Below are positions 969 through 19,565 of a stretch of DNA of 64,000 nucleotides, in pieces (positions within the stretch are counted from its first letter, which is position 1; each line of letters opens with the position of its first letter). The notes under the pieces were generated by a model. It searched no databases. It was not told where the DNA came from and saw only the letters and a program-made list of their open reading frames with translations. Both the position numbers and the translations under genes were made by a program. Source of the stretch: Patescibacteria group bacterium (GTDB lineage: Bacteria; Patescibacteriota; Patescibacteriia; XYB2-FULL-38-15); the NCBI GenBank assembly GCA_041737355.1, contig JBGSRW010000010.1, positions 3,935 through 67,934 of the forward strand, read 5' to 3'.

Positions 969-978
969 GAGATAGGCC

Positions 979-2271: not shown

Positions 2272-2413
2272 AATCAAAAAAAACGCCAGCTCGCGTTACC
2301 GGGCTGGTTTTATTTTGTCATTTTTATGTTTTTAACGGGGTTGACAAAAACCGATTATAATGATAGTTTATTTATATTATCGACAAGTTGAAAAAGAAGA
2401 AGGGAGGGGGAGA

Positions 2414-2638
2414 ATGAGAACCGAAAAGATCGCCTGTCCGCACTGCCACGGGCTCAAGAATTGCGCCTGTGAAGTTTGCGGATCCGGTCCCAAGGGGACA
2501 AAGAAGCTCGGGACTTGCCGGGTTTGTAATGGTCGGGGCTACGCGGGGATCGAAGTTTTTCCGCCGGAGGCGAAGAGCGATCCCGCGCGCGGCGAAAAGG
2601 ACAGGGGGGAGGCTTTGGAGGGAAGGGAGAAAAGATGA
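2414..2638 (+). CDS. Small DnaJ-CR-type zinc-finger protein (CxxCxGxK, CxCxxCGxG, CxxCxGxG)
   Basis: ATG 2414 behind a GGGAGGGGGAG RBS. Eight Cys arranged as in the DnaJ cysteine-rich domain. GC-rich. Confidence 0.7.
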   Translation: MRTEKIACPHCHGLKNCACEVCGSGPKGTKKLGTCRVCNGRGYAGIEVFPPEAKSDPARGEKDRGEALEGREKR

Positions 2639-2835
2639 GAGTGACAAAAGACGTCGGGGGCGTGGGGTTCTGCAACCATTGCAAGGGACGCAAGACCTGC
2701 AGCTGCGACATCTGCGTCCAGCAGGGCGGAACCTGCGGGCAATGCGGCGGCCTCGGACACTTCGTCAAGGCCAGTCCGCCTCTCCCGCCGGAGTTCAGGG
2801 TCAGGACCGAGACCGCCGGTAAGAACAAGAAATAG
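2635..2835 (+). CDS. Small DnaJ-CR-type zinc-finger protein, paralog 2
   Basis: ATGA start/stop overlap with the upstream gene. RBS gggaaggga. Same Cys pattern (CNHCKGRK, CSCDIC, CGQCGGLG). Confidence 0.7.
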   Translation: MRVTKDVGGVGFCNHCKGRKTCSCDICVQQGGTCGQCGGLGHFVKASPPLPPEFRVRTETAGKNKK

Positions 2836-2884
2836 CCGGCTTCCGCGTCTTCGGGTTCCAAAGGGGAGAGAAAGGACAGGGAAA

Positions 2885-3097
2885 TTGGCGAAGAAATGGA
2901 TTGCCTGCCCGCACTGTCATGGCGGGAAGATCTGCGAGTGCGAAGGATGTCGGAGTGAATCTCCGAAAGGATTTTTGCCCGGTCTTTGCCGCGGCTGTTC
3001 TGGGAGCGGAGGCCACTGGGCGATTGTTCCCGAGGGGAATGACCGGTTCTCGCGCGTCGCGGAAGTCGATGACGACGGAGGCAACAAGGCGAGCTAG
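2885..3097 (+). CDS. Small DnaJ-CR-type zinc-finger protein, paralog 3
   Basis: TTG start with a GGGGAGAGAAAGGA RBS. CPHCHGGK, CECEGC, CRGCSGSG. Confidence 0.6.
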   Translation: MAKKWIACPHCHGGKICECEGCRSESPKGFLPGLCRGCSGSGGHWAIVPEGNDRFSRVAEVDDDGGNKAS

Positions 3098-3119
3098 GCA
3101 GCCGGGCCGGAGGTAAGAA

Positions 3120-3335
3120 ATGAAAGGCAGCTGGGTTCGCTGCAGACATTGTTCCGGTAACAGAAGTTGCGACTGCCATGAGTGCCGTTCGCCCCGCGGC
3201 AAGGGTTTCGAGGCGGGCATCTGCCGGTACTGCGAAGGTCTGGGCGGCGACTGGAAGGGTAACGGTCCGCAAAGTCCGCGGCTCATCGCGCCGCGCCGTC
3301 CGGCCAGACATCTGCCCGATCGTCCGAAAAGGTAG
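3120..3335 (+). CDS. Small DnaJ-CR-type zinc-finger protein, paralog 4
   Basis: RBS ggaggtaag. CRHCSGNR, CDCHEC, CRYCEGLGG. Confidence 0.7.
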   Translation: MKGSWVRCRHCSGNRSCDCHECRSPRGKGFEAGICRYCEGLGGDWKGNGPQSPRLIAPRRPARHLPDRPKR

Positions 3336-3381
3336 GAGGCCGAAAAAAGTAGGAGGGAAGTAAAACAACTTGTCGTGTCGT

Positions 3382-3413
3382 GCGCCTCGGGCAATGCTCG
3401 CGGCGCTTTTTTA
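3382..3413 (+). terminator. Imperfect GC hairpin plus T6 terminator after the zinc-finger array
   Basis: gcgcc...ggcgc stem followed by ttttttatt. Confidence 0.45.
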
Positions 3414-3623
3414 TTAACTGGCCCGAAATTTTGAAGCCGCAGGCGAACAAAATTCCGTTGGCAGTTAATAACTCCGCTCCAATTTTGCTCCAATAAAAAG
3501 TTTTGCAAGAATAATAAAAAAAGTTGTTCATGTTTCGCGAAGCGCGGGCGCGAATAGCGCGTCCCGTTACGGGCGCAGCGCTTCGCCGGGAATCTAATCG
3601 CAAAATTGAGGCCGGGGTTTTTC

Positions 3624-3652
3624 TTGACAATATAAGATTTTTATATTATAAA
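3624..3652 (+). promoter_or_regulatory. Sigma70-like promoter (TTGACA, 17-nt spacer, TATAAA)
   Basis: Consensus -35 hexamer, 17-nt spacer and a near-consensus -10, about 30 nt upstream of the RBS of the 3685 gene. Confidence 0.6.
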
Positions 3653-3684
3653 GAACTGAAACAGCAGGGAAGGGAGTAAGAAAG

Positions 3685-3942
3685 ATGAGGCCGATCCGAA
3701 TTGTCACGCTCGCCCAGCCCAAAGGGGTAAGGTACCGGGAGGACGAAGAAATCAGGAGCATTGTCGGTATTCACGCCGGGTGCGGCGGGGAATTTTGCCT
3801 GGTCTACTTTTCAAGCGGCTGGTCCGAGCTCGTCTGCCGGTGCGGTATCCGCTTCAAGGTTCCGGCAAGGCGGATGACCTACCGCGAGCTCAGGTTCTTC
3901 TTCGAGGGGTCAAAACCGCTGCGGCGAAGGAGGAAGCGATGA
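3685..3942 (+). CDS. Small Cys-containing hypothetical protein (GCGGEF...GW.L.C.CG motif)
   Basis: Strong RBS gggaagggag. Paralogous to the next ORF. Confidence 0.65.
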   Translation: MRPIRIVTLAQPKGVRYREDEEIRSIVGIHAGCGGEFCLVYFSSGWSELVCRCGIRFKVPARRMTYRELRFFFEGSKPLRRRRKR

Positions 3943-4205
3943 AATCGATTCCTCTCACCAATACCGGCGAGATGCTCATTCCCTCCGAAGAATCGGAGTT
4001 GACCGACGACAGCGAACTCCGGGACGGCATGGGTCTCGGGCGGCACGACTGGAAGGGCTGCGCCGGCGGCGAGTTTCAGATCTACGAGGTGATCAGCGGC
4101 TGGACCCTGACCTGCATGGGTTGTGGCATGCAGCGGCAGATTCCGCGCGAGGTCAAAACCGTCGGAGAGCTCCGCGCTTACGCGGAAGAATTTTTCAAGG
4201 AGTGA
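3939..4205 (+). CDS. Small Cys-containing hypothetical protein, paralog of the 3685 gene
   Basis: ATGA overlap with the upstream stop. RBS ggaggaag. Shares a GC(A/G)GGEF...SGW.L.C.GCG...ELR core. The ORF track begins this frame earlier at 3780. Confidence 0.6.
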   Translation: MKSIPLTNTGEMLIPSEESELTDDSELRDGMGLGRHDWKGCAGGEFQIYEVISGWTLTCMGCGMQRQIPREVKTVGELRAYAEEFFKE

Positions 4206-4219
4206 GTCGAGGAGGCCTC

Positions 4220-4251
4220 GAGACTGTCGAAGCGGCAGTCTCTATTTTTTT
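4220..4251 (+). terminator. Rho-independent terminator
   Basis: gagactg...cagtctc stem followed by T7. Confidence 0.7.
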
Positions 4252-4252
4252 A

Positions 4253-4294
4253 CAAAAAATAAAAAAAATAAAACCGCGAAAAGTTTTTCGCGGT
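4253..4294 (-). terminator. Rho-independent terminator for the convergent minus-strand genes
   Basis: Perfect 10-bp stem accgcgaaaa/ttttcgcggt. An A-run on the + strand gives a T-run on the - strand. Confidence 0.7.
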
Positions 4295-4318
4295 CGTGAG
4301 TGATCTCCTTTTCCGGAT

Positions 4319-4645
4319 TCAGCCTTTCTTCTCCGGGAGCCGCTGTCCACAGGCCGGGCAGAATCCCGCCGCCCGCGCTTTTGCGGCCCAGGCCAGCTTC
4401 TCCGCCTCTTCTTCTGCCAGGCTCCCGCCGGGGTGGTGCAGGTTGTCGTTGTTGCAGAACGGGCAGTTAGTCAGGTATTGTCCGTAGCCGACCTCGCCGC
4501 CGTGTTGGGTTTCCCGTTTCTCGAACCCGCAATGTGGACAGATGAAGCGGTAGTCGTCGAAGATCTGCCGAGTGAGGCTCGTGTCTGCCTCGCGATAATA
4601 GCATTCGCCCATCTCGCCGCATTCCGGACACTTTGCCTTTGCCAT
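4319..4645 (-). CDS. Zinc-ribbon protein with four CxxC pairs (CPECG, CPHCG, CPFC, CPACG)
   Basis: Internal Met start with a strong RBS GGAGGAAAGGTAAGATG. The annotated ORF is longer but lacks an RBS. Confidence 0.65.
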   Translation of the reverse strand: MAKAKCPECGEMGECYYREADTSLTRQIFDDYRFICPHCGFEKRETQHGGEVGYGQYLTNCPFCNNDNLHHPGGSLAEEEAEKLAWAAKARAAGFCPACGQRLPEKKG

Positions 4646-4646
4646 C

Positions 4647-4967
4647 TTACCTTTCCTCCTCGCCCTTTCCTTTGGGCGGGAAATATCCCCGGCCGCCGCC
4701 GTTCGGCAGAAGAAAAGAAATCGTCCCGTCATCGGCCGTTTCGACCGGCGTGTTCTTGCCGAGCATGAAAGTCTGGTTCGGAAGATTCTTCCATGGCCCC
4801 CGCTCGGCTTCGAATTGCCGGGCGTAATTGACGAGCAGAAAGTGGACAAGAATTCCTTCGGTCCAGACCCGCTTTACGGTTCCCCGCCAGGCGTATCCGG
4901 TCGTGTCGTGGATTTTCAGAGCCCGGCCGCAGAGTCCTCTCCGGCCGAGAAGTTCTTCGAGTGTCAT
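4647..4967 (-). CDS. Hypothetical protein
   Basis: RBS GAAAGGAGG upstream. Stop lies 1 nt from the start of the downstream gene. Confidence 0.55.
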   Translation of the reverse strand: MTLEELLGRRGLCGRALKIHDTTGYAWRGTVKRVWTEGILVHFLLVNYARQFEAERGPWKNLPNQTFMLGKNTPVETADDGTISFLLPNGGGRGYFPPKGKGEEER

Positions 4968-5052
4968 TCCCGGCCTCCTTTCAAACCTCGGTTAAGTTTA
5001 ACTTTTTAAGTCAATTTGTCAAGGTACCAAGTTTCTGCGATAATATGGGAAG

Positions 5053-5850
5053 ATGGAAAACATCATTGAAGTAAAAAATTTGGTAAAAAAATACAACGGT
5101 CTCGCCGCGGTGGACGGGATTTCTTTTGGCGTGGCGCCCGGAGAAATTTTTGCTTTTTTGGGGCCAAACGGCGCCGGGAAAACCACAACCATCAAGATGC
5201 TCACAACTCTCCTGCATCCGAGTTCCGGCGAAATGCTGATGAACGGTTTTGACCCGATGAAGGAAGAAGACAAGGTCAGGCAATCGTTCGGAATTGTTTT
5301 TCAGGATCCGAGCCTGGACGACGAACTCACGGCTTACGAGAACATGTATTTTCACGCCGTCTTGTATAAAACTCCGAAGGCCGGGCGGGCCGAACGGATA
5401 AAACAGCTTTTGGAATTCGTCGAACTCTTTGACCGAAGAGGCGATCTGGTCAAAAAGTTTTCCGGCGGGATGAAACGGCGTCTGGAAATCGCCCGCGGCC
5501 TGTTGCACCATCCGAAAATTTTGTTTTTGGACGAACCGACGCTTGGCCTCGATCCCCAGACAAGCAACGCCATCTGGCAGTACGTAAAAAATATGCGGGA
5601 GACGGAGGGGACAACCGTTTTTTTCACGACCCATTACATGGCCGAAGCCGAACGGGTCGCCGACCGCGTTGCGATTATTGATCATGGAAAAATCGTCGCC
5701 CAAGGAACCGTTCCCGAACTTTTGGCTTCCACCAAAACCGATAATCTGGAAGACGCTTTTCTTTCGCTCACAGGAAAAAAGTTAAGGGACAGCGAAGCGA
5801 CAGGAGCCGATAATTTGCGGGAAGGCCGGGCCATGTGGCACCGGAGATAA
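5053..5850 (+). CDS. ABC transporter ATP-binding protein
   Basis: Walker A GPNGAGKTT, ABC signature LSGGMKRR, Walker B ILFLDEPT. Confidence 0.9.
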   Translation: MENIIEVKNLVKKYNGLAAVDGISFGVAPGEIFAFLGPNGAGKTTTIKMLTTLLHPSSGEMLMNGFDPMKEEDKVRQSFGIVFQDPSLDDELTAYENMYFHAVLYKTPKAGRAERIKQLLEFVELFDRRGDLVKKFSGGMKRRLEIARGLLHHPKILFLDEPTLGLDPQTSNAIWQYVKNMRETEGTTVFFTTHYMAEAERVADRVAIIDHGKIVAQGTVPELLASTKTDNLEDAFLSLTGKKLRDSEATGADNLREGRAMWHRR

Positions 5851-5857
5851 AAATTTT

Positions 5858-6604
5858 ATGTCGACTATCTATATATTGTGGTTAAGACAACTTAAAAGAT
5901 ATTTGCGTTCGCGCTCAAGAATTATCGGGTCGCTCGGCCAGCCGCTTTTGTTTTTGGTGGCGCTCGGTTTCGGTTTCGGTCCGATTTACGAACGGGCCGG
6001 AGCGGGAAATTATCTGCAGTTTTTGGTTCCGGGAGTCGTCGCCATGAGCGTTCTTTTTACGGCGATGTTTTCGGGAATCGAAGTTATCTGGGACCGCCAG
6101 TTCGGATTTTTGAAAGAAACTCTGGTCGCCCCGGTTTCGCGCCTCCGGATTATGATCGGCCGGACCTTGGGCGGAGCAACGGTCGCGACTCTTCAGGGAG
6201 TGATCGTTTTTTTTCTTTCGTTTTTTGTCGGTTTCCGTCCGGCCTCATGGGCCTACGTTCCCCTGGCGTTTCTTTTTATGTTTTTGCTCGCGGCAATCTT
6301 TACCGCTCTCGGCACGGCTATCGCCTCAAAGATGTCGGACATGCACGGTTTCCAGCTCATCATGAATTTTCTGATCATGCCGATTTTTTTCCTTTCCGGG
6401 GCGCTTTTTCCTTTGGATGGCCTGCCTAAAATTATTGCTTCGGTCACATCGGCCAACCCGCTTTCCTACGGAGTCGATGCCCTGCGGGGGACGCTCAGCC
6501 TGCAATCCCATTTCGGTATCGGGACGGACGCGATTGTTCTTTCCGCCGCCGCAGTCGTTCTTTTAACCCTGGGCGGATATTTGTTTTCAAAAATTGAAGT
6601 GTAA
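5858..6604 (+). CDS. ABC-2 type transporter permease
   Basis: Six predicted TM helices. Directly follows the ATPase gene. Confidence 0.8.
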   Translation: MSTIYILWLRQLKRYLRSRSRIIGSLGQPLLFLVALGFGFGPIYERAGAGNYLQFLVPGVVAMSVLFTAMFSGIEVIWDRQFGFLKETLVAPVSRLRIMIGRTLGGATVATLQGVIVFFLSFFVGFRPASWAYVPLAFLFMFLLAAIFTALGTAIASKMSDMHGFQLIMNFLIMPIFFLSGALFPLDGLPKIIASVTSANPLSYGVDALRGTLSLQSHFGIGTDAIVLSAAAVVLLTLGGYLFSKIEV

Positions 6605-6614
6605 AATAAAAGTT

Positions 6615-7634
6615 ATGAAAAAAATATTCTTAATTTTTGCCGCAATTTTTTTTATAATTTTTTCGTGTATCGGTTTTCTGCCGCGGGTCTCCTTTGCCGC
6701 GGAAACGAGGCCGATTTTTTTTCCGACCGATCCGTCCGTAACTTTTACCGACAGTTTTGGCGATGCCCGTTACGGCCATTCGCACGAGGGGATTGATCTC
6801 ATGGGCCAAAAAATGATGCCGCTCTACTCGGCAATCGACGGGCAAGTCAGCTACATCGTTGATCCCGAAGCCGATTACGGCTATTCGGTTGTTTTGCGGG
6901 ACAGCGACGGCTACTCCTATCATTATTTGCATGTTAACAACGATACGCCGGGGACCGACGACGGTTTGGGCGGGACGGCCAATGCCTACGCCCCGGGGAT
7001 TGTCCACGGCGCAACGGTTAGCAAGGGCCAGCTTATCGGCTGGATGGGGGACAGCGGCAATGCCGAAAATGCCGGGCCTCATTTGCATTTTGAAATCCGC
7101 CTGCCCGACGGTACGGCGATCGATCCATACTTAAGTCTTGTGGCCGCCCGCTATCCCGGCAGTTACAGCCTTGCCGAGGCTCTTGCCGCAAGTCCCGACA
7201 TTAATGCCGACAAAAGTCTTTTAACCGGCCCCTCGCCGGCGCCCTGCGTTTCCGGCTCGAGACTGAAGACTTCGACCTCGACCGCGGTTTATTACTGCGG
7301 AGCCGACGGCCGGCGCTATCTTTTCCCGAACAACAAAACATATTTTACCTGGTATGCAAACTTTACCGGAGTTCTTACCATTACCTCCGCCCAACTTTCG
7401 GCGATTCCTTTCGGAGGCAACGTCACTTTTCGTCCGGGCGTGAAAATGGTAAAAATGCAGACCGATCCGAAAGTTTACGCCGTGGGGCAGGGCGGAGTTC
7501 TGCGCTGGGTAAAGTCCGATGAGACCGCTGTCGCCCTTTACGGAGCCGACTGGGCCAAGAAAATTGACGATGTTCCCGAAGCCTTTTTTACCAATTATGT
7601 CATCGGCGAGCCGGTTCTTTCGGTTCGTTTATAA
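6615..7634 (+). CDS. M23 family metallopeptidase (second paralog)
   Basis: Signal/TM N-terminus. HSHEGIDL and GPHLHFE motifs. ATG 6615 preferred over the TTG at 6594. Confidence 0.8.
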   Translation: MKKIFLIFAAIFFIIFSCIGFLPRVSFAAETRPIFFPTDPSVTFTDSFGDARYGHSHEGIDLMGQKMMPLYSAIDGQVSYIVDPEADYGYSVVLRDSDGYSYHYLHVNNDTPGTDDGLGGTANAYAPGIVHGATVSKGQLIGWMGDSGNAENAGPHLHFEIRLPDGTAIDPYLSLVAARYPGSYSLAEALAASPDINADKSLLTGPSPAPCVSGSRLKTSTSTAVYYCGADGRRYLFPNNKTYFTWYANFTGVLTITSAQLSAIPFGGNVTFRPGVKMVKMQTDPKVYAVGQGGVLRWVKSDETAVALYGADWAKKIDDVPEAFFTNYVIGEPVLSVRL

Positions 7635-7649
7635 ATCAAAAATTAGCCC

Positions 7650-7678
7650 TTGACACTTTCCCGTTTTTCCGCTATAAT
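7650..7678 (+). promoter_or_regulatory. Consensus sigma70 promoter (TTGACA, 17 nt, TATAAT)
   Basis: Perfect hexamers with 17-nt spacing. Confidence 0.65.
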
Positions 7679-7754
7679 AAAAGCACAATTGAAGAATCGT
7701 TTTTCGTGAGAGACTCTTCCTTTGGCAAGAGTTTTTTGTTCAAAAACCAACATT

Positions 7755-7976
7755 ATGGACATGGAAATTACAAAATATACATTTATCAGCGACTGGCGCG
7801 ACGCGGCCAAGGCCCAGGGGTACTTTGTCCCTTTTCAGCTCTGCAACGGGCTCGCGATCACCATGAAAAAACACAGCCTTAGCTTTGTCGAGGCTTTTGA
7901 ATACCTGACAAAACGCAATAAGATATTTTTGGACAATCTCGAGTTTTCCTACGACGGAAGCGGAGACGAGTTATAA
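7755..7976 (+). CDS. Hypothetical small protein
   Basis: ORF downstream of the promoter. The 5' leader contains a hairpin plus T-run. Confidence 0.5.
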   Translation: MDMEITKYTFISDWRDAAKAQGYFVPFQLCNGLAITMKKHSLSFVEAFEYLTKRNKIFLDNLEFSYDGSGDEL

Positions 7977-7991
7977 TTTTTAAAGAAGTTT

Positions 7992-8890: not shown

Positions 8891-9214
8891 CTAGTAGCGG
8901 ACGGTGCACTTCCGGCAGTCAGGAAGGACGGCCTTGGACATCGTGTCCATGATCGCCTCGACCTGGTGCCGGCGTGCCTCTTTGCGCGCCTGGAAGGCGT
9001 TCACGAGCTGGACCTTGAGGCCGGTCTGCTCCTCGTCCGGCACGTCCTGGAGTACGAGCATCGCGTCGAGGTGTCCGGCGCAGAAGGCGAGATCGACCGG
9101 CATCGGGCCGAGCGTGGCGACTTCCTTGCCGGACTTGCGGAGAATGACGTTGCATTCGCAGCCGCAGCCGCAGAAAAGAACCTCGATCGTGTAGGTCAAA
9201 AGTTCGATTCCCAT
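8891..9214 (-). CDS. Cys-rich hypothetical protein (CGCGCEC ... C...C..C)
   Basis: Internal Met with a GGAGGAG RBS. GC-rich. The upstream part of the annotated ORF has no RBS. Confidence 0.55.
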   Translation of the reverse strand: MGIELLTYTIEVLFCGCGCECNVILRKSGKEVATLGPMPVDLAFCAGHLDAMLVLQDVPDEEQTGLKVQLVNAFQARKEARRHQVEAIMDTMSKAVLPDCRKCTVRY

Positions 9215-9326
9215 CTTTTTTCTCCTCCTTCTTTTTCCGCCGGGGCTTTTCGCCCGGGCGGCTAATCCTAATTTCAGGATACCCCTTAATATATCATTTT
9301 TTCGGTCAATTGTCAACCCCCGCGCT

Positions 9327-9355
9327 TTGACTTTAAGCCAGGTTTTTGGGATAAT
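9327..9355 (+). promoter_or_regulatory. Sigma70-like promoter (TTGACT, 17 nt, GATAAT) for the defense-island operon
   Basis: Hexamers with 17-nt spacing, 36 nt upstream of the 9391 ATG. Confidence 0.55.
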
Positions 9356-9390: not shown

Positions 9391-12300
9391 ATGAATGGTC
9401 AATTCGTAAAAGAATATATAGTTACGGTTTCCGAAAAATACAAAACCGGCCAAGCCAAAGAGCACGCTTACCGTCCGGCGCTAGAAAAGTTGTTTCAAGA
9501 TATTACTGGTCTTGAGGTAATTAATGATCCAAAACAGAGCGAATATGGTGCGCCGGATTTTGTTTTTATAAAAGATAAACTCGCTTTGGCTTATGCGGAA
9601 GCTAAAGATGTCAAAGTGTCTCTTGACGAAATTGAAAAAAGCGAACAGGTCGTCAGATATTTTGGTTACTCGAACTTGATTTTAACCAATTATCTTGAAT
9701 TCAGATTTTTTCGCAATGGAGAAAAATATGGTGAACCAATAAAAATTGCCGAAATTATAGATAACAAAATAATACCGGCCGAAAGCAGCACTCATTTGCA
9801 GGATGAAATTGCGGAATTTATCGCTCAAGCTAAAGAACCGATAAAATCAGGCGCTTTGTTGGCAAAAGTTATGGCTGGAAAAGCCCGTCGTATTCGTGAT
9901 AATATCAGTGTTTTTTTGGCAAAGGATGGCCCCGAAAATCAAAGTTTGATGGATATTTACAATGTTATAAGAAAAATGCTTCTCCCGGATTTGGATTATG
10001 AGCGATTTGCGGATATGTATGCGCAAACCGTTGTTTATGGTTTGTTTGTCGCTCGATATCATGATGAATCACCAGGGACATTTTCCCGACAGGAGGCGCG
10101 CGATTTGATGCCGGCGTCAAATCCGTTTTTACGTGAATTTTTTAACCACATCGCCGGTCCATCATACGATCCGCGCATAGAATTTATTGTGAAGGAACTT
10201 TGTGAAGAATTCGGGCATGCCGATGTGTCAGCCATTGTCCATAATTATTATAAAACTGAAAAAGATAATAATCGCGATCCGATAATTCATTTCTATGAAG
10301 ATTTTTTGAAGGAGTATGATCCTAAATCGCGCATGAAATTAGGTGTTTTCTATACGCCATTGCCGGTTGCCCGTTTCATTGTACGTTCAGTAGATGAAAT
10401 TTTAAAAAAAGATTTTAAGTTAGCCGGGCTGTCTGATTCTTCTGAAATCGAAATAAAAAAACAAATCCAAAATAATAAAGTTAAAGCGACCGAACGTGTC
10501 CATAAGGTGCAAATTTTGGATCCCGCGACCGGGACAGGAACATTTCTCAATGAAGTTATTTCACTTGTCCATGAATCATTCGTCGGGCAAGAAGGCAGAT
10601 GGCCAAGCTATGTTCGAGAAGATTTTTTACCGCGCTTGCATGGTTTTGAATTGATGATGGCCTCTTATGTTATTGCGCATTTAAAACTTTCGTCGTCTTT
10701 CAAGGAAACAGGCGTGGATTTGGATGGTACATGGTTAGGCGTCTATCTCACAAATTCTTTGGAAAAAGCAAAAAAAGAAGACGATACTCTATTTGCCGGA
10801 TTGGGATTTGATAAGGCAATTACAGCTGAATCAAAGGCTGCTGGAAAGATAAAGACGGAGTTGCCAATTATGGTAGTGCTAGGGAACCCGCCTTATAGCG
10901 GAGTTTCGTCGAATGAAACGGAATATGCCAATAGCCTCGTGGAAAAATACAAAGTTGAACCAGGCGGAAAGCAAAAATTGCAAGAACGTAAACACTGGCT
11001 GAATGACGATTATGTAAAATTTATCGCCTTGGCCGAGAACATGGTTGAAAAAAACGGCGAAGGCATCGTGGGTTACATTACAAACCATGGCTATCTTGAC
11101 AATCAGACCTTCCGCGGCATGCGCTGGCATCTCATGGATACTTTTGATTCGATATATGTGTTCGATCTCCATGGAAATGCGAAGAAGCACGAAGTTTCGC
11201 CGGACGGCAGCAAGGATGAAAATGTATTTGATATCCAGCAAGGCGTGGCGATTATAATTGCCGTTAAGACAGGAGTGAAAAAGGCCGGAAACTTGGCAAA
11301 AGTGTATCGGGCTGATCTGTGGGGAAAGAGAGAGCATAAATTTGAACGGCTTAACGAACTTTCGATTGAAAACACAAAATGGCTATCGCTCAAACCTCGA
11401 ACGCCCTATTTATTTTTTGCGCCGGAAGGCTCGATGAAACTTGAGACTGAATATCAAATCGGATTTAGTATAAACGAACTTTTTGTTGAAAATAGCACCG
11501 GTATTGTAACTATGGGGGACGGTTTTATTATTGGCGAAGATAAAGAATCGCTTGAAAACAGAGTCGTGAATTTTTTACGCGATGATGATTCAGAAAATAT
11601 ACTGAAAGAAAACTTTAACCTAGGTAAAAATTACGCAAAGTGGATTATCGGCAACAAAAAAGATATCGTAGTTGATCATGATAAAATTACTACATTTTCT
11701 TATCGTCCGTTTGATGATAGATATACCTATTTTGATAACAAGCTTGTCTGGCGGCCGCGTACAAAGATTATGCGAAATTTTGTTAAAAAAAATAACATAG
11801 GGTTGATTGCAACAAGGCTTAATCGTCAGTTAAGTAGCGGTTATTTTTTCTTAACAAGTAAAATTGTAGATTTTCACATATTGGATAGCGCTGGAGATTC
11901 AACATCTGCTTTTCCACTTTATCTTTATTTTGAAGATGGCACAAAAAGTTCTAATCTTAAAAAAGAAATGGTATCAGAAATTGAAAAAATCGTCGGGGAT
12001 GTTGTACCCGAAAATATTTTCGATTATATCTATGCGGTTTTGCATTCGCCGAGTTATCGAGAAAAATACAAAGAGTTTTTGAAAATAGATTTTCCGCGCG
12101 TGCCATATCCGAAAAATGAGAAACAATTTTTCGCGTTAGCCAAGTTGGGCGAGGAGTTGCGGCATTTGCACTTGCTGGAAAGTCCAAAAGTTGAAAAATT
12201 TATCACTACTTATCCCGAGGCGGGAGAGAATTTGGTGGAGAAAGTCGTCTACAAAGACGGCAAAGTTTACATCAACGCTTCGCAATATTTTGGCGGCGTG

Positions 12301-12477
12301 CCGGAAGTCGCGTGGGATTTTTACATCGGCGGTTATCAGCCGGCGCAGAAATGGCTGAAAGATCGCAAAGGCCGCAAGCTCACGAATGCCGATATTGAAC
12401 ATTATCAGAAAATCATCGTGGCACTCGTTGAGACGGATAGAATAATGAAGGAAATCGACAAAAATATATCCATCTAA
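9391..12477 (+). CDS. Type IIG/IIL restriction-modification enzyme (MmeI-like): N-terminal PD-ExK nuclease fused to a gamma-class N6-adenine DNA methyltransferase and a target-recognition domain
   Basis: PD...EAK motif (APDFVFIK...AEAKD) near the N-terminus. Methyltransferase motif I ILDPATGTGTFL. Motif IV VVLGNPPYSG. 1028 aa. Low GC. Confidence 0.8.
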   Translation: MNGQFVKEYIVTVSEKYKTGQAKEHAYRPALEKLFQDITGLEVINDPKQSEYGAPDFVFIKDKLALAYAEAKDVKVSLDEIEKSEQVVRYFGYSNLILTNYLEFRFFRNGEKYGEPIKIAEIIDNKIIPAESSTHLQDEIAEFIAQAKEPIKSGALLAKVMAGKARRIRDNISVFLAKDGPENQSLMDIYNVIRKMLLPDLDYERFADMYAQTVVYGLFVARYHDESPGTFSRQEARDLMPASNPFLREFFNHIAGPSYDPRIEFIVKELCEEFGHADVSAIVHNYYKTEKDNNRDPIIHFYEDFLKEYDPKSRMKLGVFYTPLPVARFIVRSVDEILKKDFKLAGLSDSSEIEIKKQIQNNKVKATERVHKVQILDPATGTGTFLNEVISLVHESFVGQEGRWPSYVREDFLPRLHGFELMMASYVIAHLKLSSSFKETGVDLDGTWLGVYLTNSLEKAKKEDDTLFAGLGFDKAITAESKAAGKIKTELPIMVVLGNPPYSGVSSNETEYANSLVEKYKVEPGGKQKLQERKHWLNDDYVKFIALAENMVEKNGEGIVGYITNHGYLDNQTFRGMRWHLMDTFDSIYVFDLHGNAKKHEVSPDGSKDENVFDIQQGVAIIIAVKTGVKKAGNLAKVYRADLWGKREHKFERLNELSIENTKWLSLKPRTPYLFFAPEGSMKLETEYQIGFSINELFVENSTGIVTMGDGFIIGEDKESLENRVVNFLRDDDSENILKENFNLGKNYAKWIIGNKKDIVVDHDKITTFSYRPFDDRYTYFDNKLVWRPRTKIMRNFVKKNNIGLIATRLNRQLSSGYFFLTSKIVDFHILDSAGDSTSAFPLYLYFEDGTKSSNLKKEMVSEIEKIVGDVVPENIFDYIYAVLHSPSYREKYKEFLKIDFPRVPYPKNEKQFFALAKLGEELRHLHLLESPKVEKFITTYPEAGENLVEKVVYKDGKVYINASQYFGGVPEVAWDFYIGGYQPAQKWLKDRKGRKLTNADIEHYQKIIVALVETDRIMKEIDKNISI

Positions 12478-12478
12478 T

Positions 12479-12895
12479 ATGTACGAAGAAAATGGCAACG
12501 TAATAAATATAAAAGCAGCTAGGTTGAGCGCTGATCCCAGGATAGTCGGATTATTTACAAAGGATAAAAGATTGATAGAAAAAGTTATTTATTGTGTTTT
12601 CTATCCAAAAAAAGAGTTGCATGTTTATCGGGAGAGTTCGGAAGAAAAAGGTGAATATAGTTGCGAGATTTATGATTTTGAAGATGTGGTTCCAAAATTT
12701 AGGGAAAAATTAGGTGAAAAATTTGTCAGAGAAGATGGTGTCGAGAGCCTAGAACAAAATCAGCTCATCAAAAAATTTTTTATTGCGGGCATTAAATTAT
12801 TCAGTTATGAAAATATTACAGAAGAGGATAGAAAAATAATTGAGGAAATTTTTATTTCCGCAAAAAGAAAAGTTGATGAGAGAATTAAAGGGTAA
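12479..12895 (+). CDS. Hypothetical protein (138 aa) in the defense operon
   Basis: Starts 2 nt after the stop of the type IIG enzyme gene. No recognizable motif. Confidence 0.5.
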   Translation: MYEENGNVINIKAARLSADPRIVGLFTKDKRLIEKVIYCVFYPKKELHVYRESSEEKGEYSCEIYDFEDVVPKFREKLGEKFVREDGVESLEQNQLIKKFFIAGIKLFSYENITEEDRKIIEEIFISAKRKVDERIKG

Positions 12896-12919
12896 TTTAA
12901 TTTTTTTTGAAATAAATTA

Positions 12920-14338
12920 ATGGAAATAGACTTTGGCACAATTGCTGATAAAATATCGTACGACAAATACGAAGATATTGACAGCAAGATAAGAGATGAT
13001 TTGGGTTTGGACCAGGCCATGGACTTTATATCCAACAAGATTGCTCCCCAGGTTAATACGAGATTATTAAACGTCGCCTACCTGCCCTATCTTTTGTCCG
13101 GAGTTGATTTCGCCTCTAACCAGGTTAAAATTTATCAGCAAAATAATAAAATAAAGGATCGCGCTCAATTGAGAAGGCGATTTTTATTTTGGCTTGACTT
13201 GTTCGAGTTCTGCTTGGCCTGGACTTTCAAAGAAAATAATGAAAAATCTTTTATTGGAATGCAAAAAAATCAATTTGAAAAAAATATTTTTTTAGAATTT
13301 TTAAATAACCTGGCTAATACTGATCTAAAAAAAGATCTATCCTTTCGGGGTAAATTTTTAACTAGCCGGCTTTCTTACGCTTTTGACAGGCATAAATATA
13401 CTATGCAAATGTTGGGTTTAGTTGAGCCGATGCAGGGTACGCATAGCGTTTATCAGGTCAGTAATGTTGATTGTTTGAAAGATTCTCCACTTTATAAAAC
13501 CATGAGATACCTTAATTACGAGTTATCTCCCAACGAGGTCGTAAAAAGTTTTTATAAAGCGTATTTTGAAAAAAATAAAAAAAATATAACCTTAAAAAAT
13601 AAAAAATTTGGCCGAAAACTCTGGGACGATATTTTATTTGACGAAGTGACACTTAAACAATTTTTGCCAGAATATTTGCCGGCCATAGCCATGAGAGATA
13701 TTAGTTACGATAAGATTATCGCCAATACAATTGAACTCAAGAAAAAAATAGAAACCAGCAAGGGAGAAATTTTTTCTCGAGAGCTTATTTCCAGGGATGA
13801 GTATAAAAAGCTTTTGGGAAAGATTGACTTTTCAGCCAAAAAACTTGATCCGAATGTAGATTTATTTTTAGCTCTGCTCAGGATTCTCAATTATTTTTAT
13901 TATACGCCCAGGCAGATGCTGAATGAAATCAACAGGATGATAAAAAACGATAATTACGCGACCCTGGATAAAGTTAAAAATAGGCTGATAAAAACATATG
14001 AATGGCAGGAGAAAAGCCGGGATTTTAACGATGGGAAAATGACAAAATTTCTCGGGAAAATAGCTGAGATAGATGATACTTTTGGAAGTGTCTTAGATTT
14101 CTTGAAAAGTTTTTATAAAAAAGAAAACCAGCATGATCCGTTAAATTTGATAAAGGTTTTAGGAGAAAGAGTTTCGCGGGTTAAGGGATTAGGTGGACAA
14201 GTTTATTCAGTGTCCAATAACCAGATATCTATTAATGACCAGGAATATAGGGAAAAATTTAAAATTGCTACCACGATTGAGCCTTATTATTCGCGCTTAG
14301 GCATTTTAAAAATGATTTATCGGCAATGCCATGAATAA
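12920..14338 (+). CDS. Hypothetical protein (472 aa) in the defense operon
   Basis: Long ORF with island-typical low GC. No recognizable motif. Overlaps the next gene by 8 nt. Confidence 0.6.
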   Translation: MEIDFGTIADKISYDKYEDIDSKIRDDLGLDQAMDFISNKIAPQVNTRLLNVAYLPYLLSGVDFASNQVKIYQQNNKIKDRAQLRRRFLFWLDLFEFCLAWTFKENNEKSFIGMQKNQFEKNIFLEFLNNLANTDLKKDLSFRGKFLTSRLSYAFDRHKYTMQMLGLVEPMQGTHSVYQVSNVDCLKDSPLYKTMRYLNYELSPNEVVKSFYKAYFEKNKKNITLKNKKFGRKLWDDILFDEVTLKQFLPEYLPAIAMRDISYDKIIANTIELKKKIETSKGEIFSRELISRDEYKKLLGKIDFSAKKLDPNVDLFLALLRILNYFYYTPRQMLNEINRMIKNDNYATLDKVKNRLIKTYEWQEKSRDFNDGKMTKFLGKIAEIDDTFGSVLDFLKSFYKKENQHDPLNLIKVLGERVSRVKGLGGQVYSVSNNQISINDQEYREKFKIATTIEPYYSRLGILKMIYRQCHE

Positions 14339-16100
14339 TTTTTCTAAAAGCAGCAAGGTTAAAGACATTTTTAAAAAGCCCAAAGGCTTTGAGCTGAAAG
14401 AGGCAATTGTCTTTACCTATTCCCTGGAAAGCAGTTTTTTGTATGATGCCTTTTTGCCTTTTTTATGCAATAACAATACCGGCGAATGGATCAGGGATAG
14501 GTCTAACCATCTGAAAGTTTTTATAAACTCCAGCAGCCTGTCGGGCGAATTGCCTTTAAATTTATTAGGCAATATAAATCAGATTAAGACAGCTGAAAAT
14601 TCTTCTTTCCATCCTAAAATTTATTTTTTTAAATATCGAAAAGATAAAAAAGTTTTTTGTCAGATGGTTCTCGGCTCTTTCAACCTGACGGCAGACGGCT
14701 TTAATCAGAATAATGAATTCTACGCCTCGTTGTCAGGCGGGAAGAAGAACAAGTCAGGGCAGAAGCAAAAGCAGAGCTTGATAAAGTTTGTCGAGTTAGC
14801 TTTAAACGCTGCACTGGCGCTCGCTCCCAGCGAACGGAGAGAAAATCTGGCAAGAATAAAATCAATCATTGAATTTTTGGATTGGCCTGATGGGGTAGAA
14901 TTTTATTTTACCGCACCTAAATATTCAGGAAAGGAGATGGGTTTTTCGGGAAATAAATGTATTATGGTTTCTCCCTTTTGGGACGCCGCTGCCATCAACC
15001 GTTTGTCGAAGAATGCCAAACAAGTGTCATTATATTATAATTATCTATCCGAGGCCGACGCAGCGCCTTTTGAGCCGAAAAAAATAGAAGGATCAAATAA
15101 ATTTTCCTGTTTCCAGCTGAACGAAAAAAAATTAGACAAAAAGAAGCTGCACGGGAAATTATATTATTTTGGTGACGAAAAGTTCGGAAATATTTATCTT
15201 GGTTCCGCAAATTGCACGAGCAGGGCGGTTATCAGGGGGAAAAATTATGAAGCCGGCCTAGTTTTTAAGGCTAATTATCAACATTTGAAAAACTGGCTAG
15301 ACGATAAATTTAAAAAAGTTGAATTTCCCCAAAATTATTATCAAGATAAGCTAGCTGAAGACAAAAATAAAAAAGATTATGACAATGTTTATAATATGCT
15401 GGAGGCCGGGTTTTTTGTCCAAAACTCAAAAATGGCTGTAGTTATTAAAATCGAAAAACCCGAGATGTTAAAAAAATATAAGCTTACTTGTCATGACCGG
15501 CCCATTGATGATTCGCCCTTCCAAATCCCAATAGGGGAGACAAAAAATTTACCAGGCTCAATTGAAGTATTGATAAGTGAAACTTCCTACCAGTTACCAA
15601 TATCAGGTACGTATGAGCAAGAGCGGGGACCAATTAAATATCTGGATTATGAGGGCTGGTATAACTTCAAAAAAAATTACATTTCCTTGAAGTGTAATTC
15701 GCCGGAGGATCTGTTGGATTTGTATCTGGATAATATTGCCATTGATGATTTTTTTGAATTTGGCGGAGAGATGATGTTTAACAGCAATTGGCGCGAAAGA
15801 AAATTTCCTTACAAAAAATTAATGGAGCTACTTTATGGCAGCCCTGTTTTGGCAAAAATTAATTTATCTAGCAGATGCCTCAATTTTATTGAAGGCTTAG
15901 CAGCCCGGGACGATTTTGGCGAAAGAAAGAGAGGAGTTTTTTTTGCTGATTTTGAAAATTATGACAATGAAAAAGAATACCGCGATGCCTTTTTTGTTTA
16001 CTGGAAAAAATATCTGAACGAGAATAAAAAATCCCTTGACCGTGAATCGCGGATAAAAGTAAAAAAGCTGCTTGTAAAAATAGAGGCCTTGAGAAAATAA
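14331..16100 (+). CDS. Phospholipase D-family nuclease with two HKD-like motifs
   Basis: HPKIYFF...LGSFNLT and HGKLYYFGDE...LGSANCT, each HxK...GSxN, separated by about 180 aa. About 290-aa C-terminal extension. Confidence 0.7.
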   Translation: MNNFSKSSKVKDIFKKPKGFELKEAIVFTYSLESSFLYDAFLPFLCNNNTGEWIRDRSNHLKVFINSSSLSGELPLNLLGNINQIKTAENSSFHPKIYFFKYRKDKKVFCQMVLGSFNLTADGFNQNNEFYASLSGGKKNKSGQKQKQSLIKFVELALNAALALAPSERRENLARIKSIIEFLDWPDGVEFYFTAPKYSGKEMGFSGNKCIMVSPFWDAAAINRLSKNAKQVSLYYNYLSEADAAPFEPKKIEGSNKFSCFQLNEKKLDKKKLHGKLYYFGDEKFGNIYLGSANCTSRAVIRGKNYEAGLVFKANYQHLKNWLDDKFKKVEFPQNYYQDKLAEDKNKKDYDNVYNMLEAGFFVQNSKMAVVIKIEKPEMLKKYKLTCHDRPIDDSPFQIPIGETKNLPGSIEVLISETSYQLPISGTYEQERGPIKYLDYEGWYNFKKNYISLKCNSPEDLLDLYLDNIAIDDFFEFGGEMMFNSNWRERKFPYKKLMELLYGSPVLAKINLSSRCLNFIEGLAARDDFGERKRGVFFADFENYDNEKEYRDAFFVYWKKYLNENKKSLDRESRIKVKKLLVKIEALRK

Positions 16101-16109
16101 TTTTTTTAA

Positions 16110-18635
16110 ATGGAGCTATTTTCTTTCCAAAAAAAGACAGCTAAGAGGGCGATGGATCTTATGTTTGCTAAGTCTAATCCGACTGATGCGGTTTTTATAA
16201 TTGATGAAGTTGGTCTGGGAAAAACTAAAGAGGCGCTGGAAATCCTCAGAAGAAGCAGGGAGAAACTAAGGGGCAAGTTTAAAGCAATCATCATTACCCC
16301 CTCAAAAAGGCTGATTAGCCAATGGAAAAAGGAAAGCCGGGAATTTAATTCCGAAAAACAAATTTTTAACATTGAGCCAAGCGAGGCGACAAGAAAATTA
16401 TATGAAAGCGGAAAAATAACCCTTATCAACGCCGCCTTGAACTACGACCAAAAAATCAATCTAGCATTTTCCAGCGGCAATGAATTGAAAAATTTCAGGT
16501 CAACTAATTATCTGGAGCGCGAGTATATAATGTCTTTTTTTTCAAAAAGAAAAAGGGGCAAAAAATTTTTCAGGAAGCTGGGCGTTTCTCAAAATCAAAT
16601 TCCGGATGTTTACAATAAATCATTCCGAAAAATAAGCCGTAAAGACATTTCTTTGAGTGAGGCAATAAAAAGCATTAAAGATCAAACAAGTATTTCAGAG
16701 TTTAAGAAAAGATGGTTGGAAAATATAGGGGAAAGGCATAAATTTACTTCCATTGTAGTTGATGAATTCCATAATTATGTTAATTTAGCGGCTAAAAAAA
16801 ATTTAGATAAAATTTCTGGTGAGGAAAAAGAGGTCGATTATGATATCCAAATCTGGGACGAATTTTTCAGGTTGCAGGCGGATGACGGAGCTAGGAAGGT
16901 TAAAAAAATTTACTTATCAGCTACGCCGTTCAAGCCAATCAGATTGAACATCGGTCCTGAAAATCAAAATGACCCGATTTCTTATATCTTGAATGGGCTG
17001 AGTAATTCTTTCACCTATGGAGACCAGGAAAAGCTTGGCAAAAAGATTTTGAATTATAATGAGAATGTTTTAGAGATAAGAAAAAAAATAGCTTATCTAG
17101 CGAATAATCTAGGCAAGAAGGATATTAACGGAAAAGATATAGCAGAAGTTTTAAAAGATAGGGAGTTAATTGAGCTTAAGAGTAAAATAACAATAACTAA
17201 GCGGGAGATTGAAAAAATATTGAGCCGCTATTTATTGAGAAACGAAAGGAAACAAAAGAAATTTACAAGGATAACGATTGCTAAAACAATTAAAATTTCT
17301 AAAGAATTTGATAGATATATAAATCTTTTTGAAGCAATGTATCGAAGTAGATCAGTAGATCAAAGGTATGACGGCCTGCAAACCTATTTTACTTCCGGCG
17401 ATTTTTTTGACCGTTCGTATAAGCGTGAACATTATAAGGCGCTGGAAAATCTAAAGAAGAAAAGTAAATATCTTAAAAAATCTGATTTTAGAAATTATTT
17501 AAAAACGCACCCTAAATTAGAAGAGCTTAAAAAAATAATAAGAGAAGATTTGAAATGGTTCAAGTCTAAAGGCAACCCTCCTTGTTGGTTAGACGTTTAT
17601 AATCCCGAGGGGTATTCTAAGGCGCTTGTTTTTTGCGGCTATAGAGGTACACAGAATTATTTGGAAAAAGAAACAAAAAAGGAATATGAACATAAAGTTA
17701 AAAAAATATTTAAACCCTCAAATGTTTTGAAGAATACAATTGAAAAAATGTTTAAAAATATTACCGGCTATGATGGTATCGAGGAAAAACAGAGGGATAT
17801 CGTAGAAAATTTCTACGGATATCTGCCTTCGTATATTAAGAGATGGGGTTTAAGAAAAAGCGAGAGAGTTACAGCCAGGCAATTAAAGCGGTATATCAAA
17901 AAAAATAAATTGGAAGAAGTATTAAAATATTATTTTGAACGTGTTTGCGATAAAAAGCAGGAAAAATTTTTCGAAAACATTAAGGCCATTACAGAATGGA
18001 CACTGATGCAAAGCAGGCACGGCGTAATTGCCAAGTACGGAGAAATGTCAGGCGGCAAAGGAAAAAGAAGCGGGGTTGAGCGCATAGAGGATCTGCGGAC
18101 TGCCTTTAACTCCCCATTTTATCCCTACATTATGATTTCTACTAATGCTGGTTCGGAGGGGATTAGTCTGCATTCTTATTGCCGCAATGTTATCCATTAC
18201 GAACAGGATTGGATGCCAGCAACAATTGAACAAAGAAGTGGCAGGGTAGATAGGATAAATTCACTGGCGGCAAGGTTAAGAATAGAAGAGATTAAAGATA
18301 AAAATGATTTGGAAAAATTAAAGCATAGTCCCCACGCCGATCATTTACTAGAGCCAGGCAAGCCACAAGTTGAAGTTTGCGATCATTACATGCATAATAA
18401 AGATGTAAAAATAAATATATACCGGCTGGTTATGGAAGCAACCATAGACGAATATATGTATAATAGGGAGAGGGAACGTGCATTATGGGTTGATTTGTTT
18501 GTTGGCGGAGAAGATGTTAACAAAATGTTGGATTCAAGCGTCGGTTTGAATTTCAATATTTCTGATGAGAGCGTTAAATTGGAGTTAGATAAATTGATAG
18601 AGGAAATAAAAATAAAAGTAGGAGAAATAAAATAA
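16110..18635 (+). CDS. SNF2-family (SF2) helicase-like ATPase
   Basis: Motif I IIDEVGLGKT, motif II VVDEFHNY, motif III LSATPF, motif V STNAGSEGISL, motif VI DWMPATIEQRSGRVDRI (SNF2-like DWNP...Q..R..R). Confidence 0.75.
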   Translation: MELFSFQKKTAKRAMDLMFAKSNPTDAVFIIDEVGLGKTKEALEILRRSREKLRGKFKAIIITPSKRLISQWKKESREFNSEKQIFNIEPSEATRKLYESGKITLINAALNYDQKINLAFSSGNELKNFRSTNYLEREYIMSFFSKRKRGKKFFRKLGVSQNQIPDVYNKSFRKISRKDISLSEAIKSIKDQTSISEFKKRWLENIGERHKFTSIVVDEFHNYVNLAAKKNLDKISGEEKEVDYDIQIWDEFFRLQADDGARKVKKIYLSATPFKPIRLNIGPENQNDPISYILNGLSNSFTYGDQEKLGKKILNYNENVLEIRKKIAYLANNLGKKDINGKDIAEVLKDRELIELKSKITITKREIEKILSRYLLRNERKQKKFTRITIAKTIKISKEFDRYINLFEAMYRSRSVDQRYDGLQTYFTSGDFFDRSYKREHYKALENLKKKSKYLKKSDFRNYLKTHPKLEELKKIIREDLKWFKSKGNPPCWLDVYNPEGYSKALVFCGYRGTQNYLEKETKKEYEHKVKKIFKPSNVLKNTIEKMFKNITGYDGIEEKQRDIVENFYGYLPSYIKRWGLRKSERVTARQLKRYIKKNKLEEVLKYYFERVCDKKQEKFFENIKAITEWTLMQSRHGVIAKYGEMSGGKGKRSGVERIEDLRTAFNSPFYPYIMISTNAGSEGISLHSYCRNVIHYEQDWMPATIEQRSGRVDRINSLAARLRIEEIKDKNDLEKLKHSPHADHLLEPGKPQVEVCDHYMHNKDVKINIYRLVMEATIDEYMYNRERERALWVDLFVGGEDVNKMLDSSVGLNFNISDESVKLELDKLIEEIKIKVGEIK

Positions 18636-18642
18636 TTTATAT

Positions 18643-19173
18643 TTGATAAATATTTTAAACGATCGGATTTTTAGTATGGATGTTAATAAAGAAAGAAAAG
18701 TTTGCCGGGATTATTTGGTGGCGCGTAAGAAATTTTTAAAATTTGCTAATAAAAGTGAATTATTGCGGGGCAATGATAATATTATTGGCAGCCGAATTGG
18801 GGAATTTATTGCCTGGGAATTTTTGGATAAACAAAAAAGGAAGCCGAAGATGAATGAGCGAGCTAATGTTGAAGGTCATGATATGGTTTGTAAGGATGGC
18901 AAAAAAATTTCCGTTAAACTAATTAGTCCGGAGAACAAAACGGGAAGAACGACAAGGTTGGGTAAAAATTGGGATGAATTTTTATTAATTATTCTCGGCG
19001 ATAATTATAAAGTAGCTAAAATTGGTCATATCACCCGAAGCCAATTTAATAAAGATAAAAAAATAAGGAGTGCTAACCCGTATACAACTCGATCGATGTT
19101 AGGGGAAAAGGGTTTGTTTGTAAGATCTAGGGGGCGTGTTTATAAAAAGGAAGAAGTTAGTTGGTTAATATAG
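18643..19173 (+). CDS. Hypothetical protein (176 aa), last gene of the defense operon
   Basis: TTG start at 18643 with an alternative ATG at 18676. Basic protein. Weak D...VK pattern. Confidence 0.45.
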   Translation: MINILNDRIFSMDVNKERKVCRDYLVARKKFLKFANKSELLRGNDNIIGSRIGEFIAWEFLDKQKRKPKMNERANVEGHDMVCKDGKKISVKLISPENKTGRTTRLGKNWDEFLLIILGDNYKVAKIGHITRSQFNKDKKIRSANPYTTRSMLGEKGLFVRSRGRVYKKEEVSWLI

Positions 19174-19206
19174 CTGGGAGAAGAGAAAATAAAATTGAAA
19201 TAAATT

Positions 19207-19545
19207 ATGGATCCAGCGGTTCGGACAATGGTAAACAAAATGCTTATTGGTTTTTGGCCGATTTTTGTTTGTCTGATAGGAATTTTAGCTATTTTGTTAA
19301 TAGATATATATGTATACCGGTTGGCGAAACCGTGGATAGCCAAGAAAGATAAGATGTTGGTTAGTTTGCTTTTTAGATTTTTGGGAGTGATTGGGTTTTT
19401 TATGGTGCTCGGATTATTGATTTCTTCCCTTGCGGATGCGTGGCAATCATTTTATTGGTATGGAGCGGGATTAGTTGCGGTAATTTTGGGATTTGCATTG
19501 GTGGCGATAGTTTTGAAATATAAATTTTTGAGAAATAAAAAATAA
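19207..19545 (+). CDS. Small membrane protein
   Basis: Three predicted TM helices. Confidence 0.5.
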   Translation: MDPAVRTMVNKMLIGFWPIFVCLIGILAILLIDIYVYRLAKPWIAKKDKMLVSLLFRFLGVIGFFMVLGLLISSLADAWQSFYWYGAGLVAVILGFALVAIVLKYKFLRNKK

Positions 19546-19565
19546 ATATTTTAAGCGAAAAATTT

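Follow-up and report, generated by a model that had tools for sequence, protein, structure and literature searches.

The question raised by this locus is whether the large restriction-modification (R-M) enzyme encoded at positions 9391-12477 works alone or together with the nuclease and helicase genes that follow it closely on the same strand. The locus lies in a stretch of 64,000 nucleotides of contig JBGSRW010000010.1 from a Patescibacteria group bacterium, and this whole stretch is called the window below. The original prediction was a self-contained Type IIG/IIL nuclease-methyltransferase, whose place at the head of a larger operon was taken to mean either functional coupling with the downstream PLD and SNF2 genes or two stacked defence modules. 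We consider it likely that an autonomous DrdV-like Type IIL (Type IIG) R-M enzyme and an independent, divergent Azaca-type module share one island. Sequence comparison thus favours the stacked modules and disfavours the coupling, because the downstream trio (g472, PLD and SNF2) recurs elsewhere without a methyltransferase and none of the 85 loci with enzyme relatives carries the PLD gene or g472.

The enzyme gene (plus strand) starts with ATG and encodes a full-length, frameshift-free open reading frame (ORF) of 1028 amino acids, and no long simple-sequence tracts of the phase-variation type were found in it. Given the Pfam matches to Type_ISP_C and N6_Mtase/Eco57I and the PADLOC scores for REase_MTase_IIG, it is clearly a real gene and not a chance ORF. 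REase_MTase_IIG is the top PADLOC model (966 bits), and the first 300 residues alone reach 203 bits against the N-terminus of this model. The match to Type_ISP_C (PF18135, E 4e-83) spans positions 1-342 of the 342 in the model and residues 696-1021 of the enzyme, while the Pfam match to MmeI_Mtase is below threshold (19 bits against a cutoff of 27). NCBIfam returned only MAD2 and PglX, both far below threshold. In a sequence search of PDB, residues 300-992 match DrdV (7lo5, E 7e-45), LlaBIII and LlaGI, and the DrdV match rises to E 4e-75 with a family profile. For the N-terminal region there is a weak match to HSDR_N (E 0.03), and the domain searches gave zero matches to helicase families in residues 1-300.

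From these matches and from the structural comparison below, the predicted single-chain nuclease-methyltransferase is borne out as a four-part, DrdV-like architecture. A PD-ExK nuclease domain (residues 1-130, positions 9391-9780), delimited by an AlphaFold2 (AF2) model, Foldseek and profile alignment, is followed by a helical connector (residues 131-295, positions 9781-10275), which is all-helical in the AF2 model and lies inside the Foldseek alignment to DrdV. Then come a gamma-class N6-adenine methyltransferase domain (residues 296-640, positions 10276-11310; Pfam N6_Mtase, Eco57I and MmeI_Mtase) and, at the C terminus, a target recognition domain (TRD; residues 696-1021, positions 11476-12453), which is the Type_ISP_C match and was aligned to its counterparts in DrdV, LlaBIII and LlaGI. 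The nuclease residues are E24 (9460-9462), D56 (9556-9558), E70 (9598-9600) and K72 (9604-9606). The last three form the motif D56-x13-E70-x-K72, with APDFVFIK at residues 54-61 and YAEAKD at residues 68-73. In the methyltransferase, motif I DPATGTGTF occupies residues 377-385 (10519-10545) and NPPY residues 499-502 (10885-10896).

Since the first 300 residues gave no significant match to PDB sequences (only noise with phmmer), they were modelled by AF2 from an alignment of 23 sequences. The model has a mean predicted local distance difference test score (pLDDT) of 81 and consists of a core with alpha-beta-beta-beta-alpha-beta topology and, behind it, a region made up of helices only. When it was compared to PDB with Foldseek, the DrdV chains took the top five places (probability 1.0, E 2e-5 to 2e-4, about 320 columns), and small restriction-endonuclease domains came after them. 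The nuclease active site of DrdV consists of E25, D64, E79, K81 and K94, and mutation of K81 abolishes catalysis (bioRxiv 10.1101/2021.01.06.425610). In the profile alignment, E24, D56, E70 and K72 of the enzyme fall in register on DrdV E25, D64, E79 and K81, and Q86 falls on K94.

The same residues stand out in the conservation analysis. Among the 120 best homologues (56-71% identity), P55, D56, E70 and K72 are conserved at 98-100%. A second alignment comprised the enzyme and 80 relatives from species-representative genomes of Patescibacteria, Bacteroidota, Proteobacteria, Spirochaetes and others, 45-67% identical to it. In all 81 sequences E24, R28, P55, D56, E70, K72, R89 and Y90 are invariant, as are D377, G381, F385 and NPPY (N499-Y502) of the methyltransferase, so both the nuclease motif and the NPPY motif are intact as originally claimed; Q86 is nearly invariant in the relatives. 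The identity of the nuclease domain across the relatives averages only 44%, with a range of 33-72%, and invariant catalytic residues in a domain this divergent indicate purifying selection. For that reason a PglX-like reading with a dead nuclease is disfavoured. An alignment had been proposed as the check for such a reading, and with the residues conserved and in register with the DrdV active site, that alignment speaks against it; to judge by sequence and model together, the enzyme is of DrdV architecture. BREX PglX was also rejected as a candidate on the conserved PD-ExK domain and on the NCBIfam score of the BREX-6 PglX model (14 bits against a cutoff of 900). None of BrxA, BrxB, BrxC, BrxZ and BrxL was found in the operon, where the sole PADLOC Brx match is a weak one of BrxHI/HII to the SNF2 gene (68 bits).

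When compared to known enzymes, the closest is DrdV (PDB 7LO5/7LVV), a Type IIL enzyme from Deinococcus with 1029 amino acids, whose site is CATGNAC, with methylation of one strand and cleavage 10/8 downstream. Both have nearly the same length (1028 and 1029 amino acids) and the same order of nuclease, helical connector, N6A methyltransferase and TRD; the methyltransferase and TRD are homologous, the N-terminal part has DrdV as its top PDB fold match, and the E/D/E-x-K residues are in register. On the other hand, the N-terminal domains are just about 15-17% identical, the spacing is D-x13-ExK instead of the x14 of DrdV (D64-x14-E79-x-K81; bioRxiv 10.1101/2021.01.06.425610), K94 is replaced by Q86, and the enzyme is known here from sequence and model. 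With the MmeI family (PMC2731913, PMC4833311) the enzyme shares a PD-ExK nuclease, a gamma-class N6A methyltransferase and a TRD in a single chain with no second methyltransferase nearby, and methylation of one strand would be expected by analogy. The sequence relation is weak, however, the TRD is of the Type_ISP_C kind, and the MmeI motif is D70-x9-E80-x-K82 (PMC2731913). The arrangement that had been called MmeI-like is therefore of the right motif type but does not have the MmeI spacing. As for self-containment, which also holds, no second methyltransferase or HsdS family was found by Pfam, PADLOC and NCBIfam among the seven other operon genes, and close relatives of the enzyme stand alone among housekeeping genes.

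The three downstream genes most likely form a separate, highly divergent Azaca-type anti-phage module, to judge from their sequences, and are not partners of the enzyme. Azaca is a defence system made of ZacA (DUF6361), ZacB (a PLD nuclease) and ZacC (an SF2 helicase), and it functions with ZacABC alone (bioRxiv 10.1101/2025.07.10.664194). In the window, all on the plus strand, g472 (12920-14338) takes the ZacA position and is followed by a ZacB-like PLD nuclease of 589 amino acids (14331-16100) and a ZacC-like SNF2/SF2 helicase of 841 amino acids (16110-18635). The PLD protein has ZacB as its top PADLOC match (103 bits, E 4e-30) besides Pfam PLDc_2, and its two HxK...GSxN halves are intact (H94-x-K96...GSFN and H274-x-K276...GSAN). 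For the helicase the top PADLOC match is ZacC (153 bits, E 4e-45), and motifs GLGKT, DEFH and QRSGR are intact. The ZacB-like and ZacC-like genes are adjacent and in Azaca order.

How divergent the module is can be seen from the homologue searches with the PLD protein. A word-indexed search returned only the protein itself, and a five-sequence profile returned three distant proteins. With exhaustive HMMER, 51 matches at E < 1e-3 were found among 1.84 billion representatives, the best with 34% identity and E 1e-13. Some of them are true ZacB proteins, which score 420-536 bits with the ZacB model, and the rest belong to a small divergent clade (P0122, P0123, P0126 and P0146), which aligns to the PLD protein over its full length. 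A scan of viral contigs for this clade gave nothing, but a metagenome scan gave a locus (L088/L089) that encodes a 429-residue protein, a 681-residue PLD protein and an 849-residue helicase in the same order. Its 429-residue protein in L089 is homologous to g472 (E 2e-11), and the L089 helicase is 28% identical to the SNF2 protein of the window over 885 residues (E 7e-58). This trio is also low in guanine-cytosine (GC) content, and no methyltransferase is present. In a canonical Azaca locus (L092-L094), a DUF6361 protein (417 residues), a PLD-like protein (614) and a helicase (1132) are again encoded without a methyltransferase, and the ZacC there shares 41% identity over 71 residues and a characteristic C-terminal motif with the SNF2 protein of the window. 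As a side observation, the L089 trio (169-7980) lies in a stretch resembling a defence island, with a CHAT protease, Bro-N, two DUF4062-HATPase_c_4 proteins and an ADP-ribosylglycohydrolase.

The assignment of g472 is weaker. By HMMER, it had no match to DUF6361 or to PADLOC ZacA. When g472 and its L089 homologue, which stands in the same position, were combined into a two-sequence profile, hhalign aligned this profile to the canonical DUF6361 protein with a probability of 65% and E 6e-5 and with the N-terminal positions equivalent, which is suggestive of a remote DUF6361/ZacA homologue. Altogether, the trio agrees with Azaca in gene order and sizes (g472 has 472 residues, ZacA 417), in having ZacB and ZacC as best PADLOC matches and in the three-gene layout of the canonical locus. 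It differs in its extreme divergence, in a helicase of 841 residues as against roughly 1000-1130, and in the extra orphan genes g138 and g176 of the window.

We then turn to the neighbourhoods of the enzyme family, which contains at least 8000 proteins at E <= 1e-20 and at least 597 confirmed stretches in one-genome-per-species contigs, many of them from Patescibacteria. In L001, a relative with 70% identity has genes of housekeeping type on its flanks, namely a tRNA synthetase, an ABC transporter and ATP synthase. The L002 relative (64%) has SecY, adenylate kinase and RecO around it, a housekeeping setting; its stop codon is overlapped by an unannotated 394-residue ORF, and no defence-type domains were detected in its flanking genes. 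Other relatives have tight 3' neighbours that are unrelated to each other, for example a 1169-residue and a 306-residue unknown protein, a 394-residue winged helix-turn-helix protein and an NYN protein.

The place of the enzyme in front of other genes had been regarded as atypical, and this did not stand. A same-strand ORF of at least 100 amino acids begins within 60 nucleotides of the enzyme stop in 38 of the 75 related loci with enough downstream sequence, and these ORFs are heterogeneous. The 3' neighbour families are NYN, Bro-N and PDC-S13 (three each), OLD/GajA-like, Mrr_cat, PDC-S05 and PDC-S02 (two each), besides RhuM, PIF1, SNF2, a tRNA synthetase and large unknown proteins of 984-1360 residues; just six neighbour pairs are related to each other across the loci of the family. 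Tight downstream genes are thus common and the partner is not conserved, which is the behaviour of a variable defence-island slot and suggests that the region 3' of the enzyme family is a recurrent variable cargo slot for defence genes. The PLD protein, g472, g138 and g176 have no homologue in the ORFs of 87 loci, 85 of which are enzyme-relative loci. In the same 87 loci, the SNF2 protein of the window has one match only, an SNF2 protein in L036. In this locus (13110-17192, Patescibacteria UBA661), a 1360-residue SNF2-domain protein begins 4 nucleotides 3' of the enzyme relative, and it is the sole one of the 85 loci with a helicase related to the SNF2 protein of the window beside an enzyme relative.

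Another contig of the set (L007, Logan DRR490230) encodes many proteins that are 40-78% identical to those of window positions 1-35600, in a rearranged gene order. It belongs to a related genome, and behind its enzyme copy (66% identity) come NYN, PsbP-like and GIY-YIG genes, with no Azaca-like island. Other window proteins have counterparts in L013 and L001, and all three are Patescibacteria-type contigs, which points to a Patescibacteria (Paceibacterota-like) genome as the probable source of the window.

In the window the enzyme heads a tight operon, as had been stated. The next ORF begins 1 nucleotide past its stop (TAAtATG), and the successive gaps after the enzyme are 1, 24, -8, 9, 7, 33 and 20 nucleotides. 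A candidate promoter-like site, TTGACT-17-(TG)GATAAT, was found on the plus strand at 9327-9355, 36 nucleotides 5' of the ATG (10/12 in the consensus scan, with an extended -10 TG), and the enzyme and the trio are probably co-transcribed. The island extends over 9391-19913 (about 10.5 kb) with sharp edges. Its GC content is 31-42%, compared to about 50% on either side, and at third codon positions it is 27-46% compared to about 53-66%. The flanking genes are of the kind usual in a chromosome, with M23 peptidases, an ABC transporter, a YgjP-like protein and tRNAs, and no direct repeats, tRNA or integrase delimiting the island ends were found. Horizontal acquisition of both modules in one low-GC island is the best-supported reading.

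Several alternatives were weighed against this. A methyltransferase-only or decayed enzyme, in which the nuclease is non-functional and its motifs are kept by recent descent, would not be without precedent, as inactive native genes of the MmeI family exist (PMC2731913), and a gene in a foreign island may be poorly expressed. We regard it as quite unlikely, since the ORF is full-length with no frameshift or long simple repeats, the catalytic residues are intact and invariant across relatives with nuclease domains only 33-72% identical, and the N-terminal domain is modelled with confidence as a DrdV-like PD-ExK nuclease. An ATP-driven, translocating Type ISP enzyme is highly improbable. The methyltransferase and the Type_ISP_C recognition domain are indeed homologous, with strong similarity, to those of LlaGI and LlaBIII (PDB 5FFJ, 4XQK), and some homologues bear the names "type ISP enzyme" (NCBI) or "predicted helicase" (JGI); as no helicase domain is present here, these names derive only from the TRD and methyltransferase held in common with Type ISP enzymes. 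In LlaGI and LlaBIII, an SF2 ATPase motor and an Mrr-like nuclease are in the same chain, and cutting follows collision. They have 1406-1578 residues, of which the part aligned to the enzyme begins only at residues 676 and 840. The enzyme is 400-550 residues shorter and has no helicase or ATPase domain, residues 1-295 being nuclease and helical connector. As a single polypeptide, a Type ISP enzyme is ruled out by the missing motor domain.

The more direct challenge to two independent modules is a coupled system with the logic of DISARM, BREX or a split Type ISP enzyme, in which the enzyme would recognise the site and mark self DNA while PLD and SNF2, perhaps with g138 or g472 as adaptors, perform or strengthen the restriction of unmethylated DNA. 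The content of the operon recalls DISARM class 1 (DrmD SNF2, DrmMI, DrmA, DrmB and DrmC PLD), with an N6A methyltransferase, a PLD nuclease and an SNF2 helicase. There are weak matches of SNF2 to DrmD and a weak partial match of PLD to DrmC (E 1e-4), the TRD and methyltransferase are homologous to those of motor-carrying Type ISP enzymes, and the enzyme relative in L036 has its SNF2 protein at +4 nucleotides. The enzyme and the trio also share one tightly packed operon, with spacing like that of translational coupling, and one low-GC island, and no terminator-like site with more than 3 G-C pairs was found on the coding strand between the operon genes. These points count against the reading of separate modules, and so do three others: the independence of the trio rests on one independent locus (L088/L089) and canonical Azaca, g138 and g176 have no explanation within a two-module view, and the N-terminal alignment to DrdV is not significant by sequence score and rests on the fold match. 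Nevertheless, we find a coupled system unlikely. No conserved association exists, as 0/85 enzyme-relative loci have PLD or g472; the trio recurs without a methyltransferase, both in L088/L089 and in canonical Azaca; and published Azaca needs ZacABC only (bioRxiv 10.1101/2025.07.10.664194). Unlike PglX or partners of the DrmMI type, the enzyme keeps its own nuclease with invariant residues. DISARM itself was rejected, with 77 bits for the NCBIfam DrmD model against a cutoff of 610, no DUF1998/DrmB match, and as the only DrmA match a weak one of 46 bits on the C-terminal motif of the helicase. A more specific form is one methylation-gated system, in which the one-strand N6-methyladenine mark of the enzyme, or the enzyme through g138, tells PLD and SNF2 which DNA to spare or attack. 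If true, a single-chain R-M enzyme would here be joined with a nuclease-helicase system for defence into a new hybrid, and we think this improbable.

Under the preferred reading of an autonomous enzyme beside an independent Azaca-type module, the C-terminal TRD of the single polypeptide would read an asymmetric DNA site. By analogy with DrdV and MmeI, the enzyme would then methylate one adenine (N6) on one strand as the self mark. Alternatively, it would use the N-terminal PD-ExK nuclease to cut unmethylated foreign DNA a fixed, short way from the site, and would probably do so only once several enzyme-bound sites meet, as in those two enzymes. We infer the one-strand methylation, the cleavage geometry and the activity itself from such analogies. 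The products of g472, PLD and SNF2 would act as the second, independent nuclease-helicase defence module. Their pairing with an R-M enzyme would be a sensible complementary arrangement because R-M attacks unmodified DNA and published Azaca prefers hypermodified T4 DNA, so the Azaca-like module may be directed against modified DNA.

The enzyme brings one more uncharacterised specificity to the single-chain R-M enzymes related to DrdV, a very large family. Its value lies mainly in a recognition sequence that may be new and in evidence for reliance on compact R-M in small-genome, Patescibacteria-like bacteria. The enzyme is an ordinary member of its family. What stands out more is the variable cargo slot and, in the window, the near-orphan Azaca-like module, a branch that could extend the range of sequences known for Azaca.

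The remaining genes of the operon are less informative. As for g472, no significant family match was found for g138 and g176 in Pfam, PADLOC, NCBIfam and PHROGs. The orphan g138 (12479-12895, plus strand, 138 residues), directly behind the enzyme, may serve as an adaptor or a regulator, or may be a spurious ORF. Behind the helicase, the orphan g176 (18643-19173, plus strand) closes the tightly packed series; it encodes a basic protein of 176 residues and has only weak similarity to PADLOC mREase_II (methyl-directed restriction enzyme, E 0.0066) and to DUF6998 (E 0.03). Its single-sequence AF2 model, with a pLDDT of 37, is unusable, and a possible nuclease-like motif, D80...S91-x-K93, was noticed on visual inspection only. 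The island closes on its 3' side (19207-19913, plus strand, 36-42% GC) with g112, a hydrophobic protein predicted by sequence inspection to be a membrane protein, and a DUF1801/DUF5655 protein (DUF1801 in Pfam, E 5e-14).

Outside the island, a small Cys-rich, high-GC ORF without Pfam match occupies 8891-9316 on the minus strand. Between this ORF and the enzyme, two promoter-like sites stand back to back, one on the minus strand at 9316-9288 (11/12) and one on the plus strand at 9327-9355 (10/12). Just beyond the other end of the island, a small GIY-YIG (UPF0213-like) ORF at 20558-20800 was recognised by eye from its N-terminal sequence.

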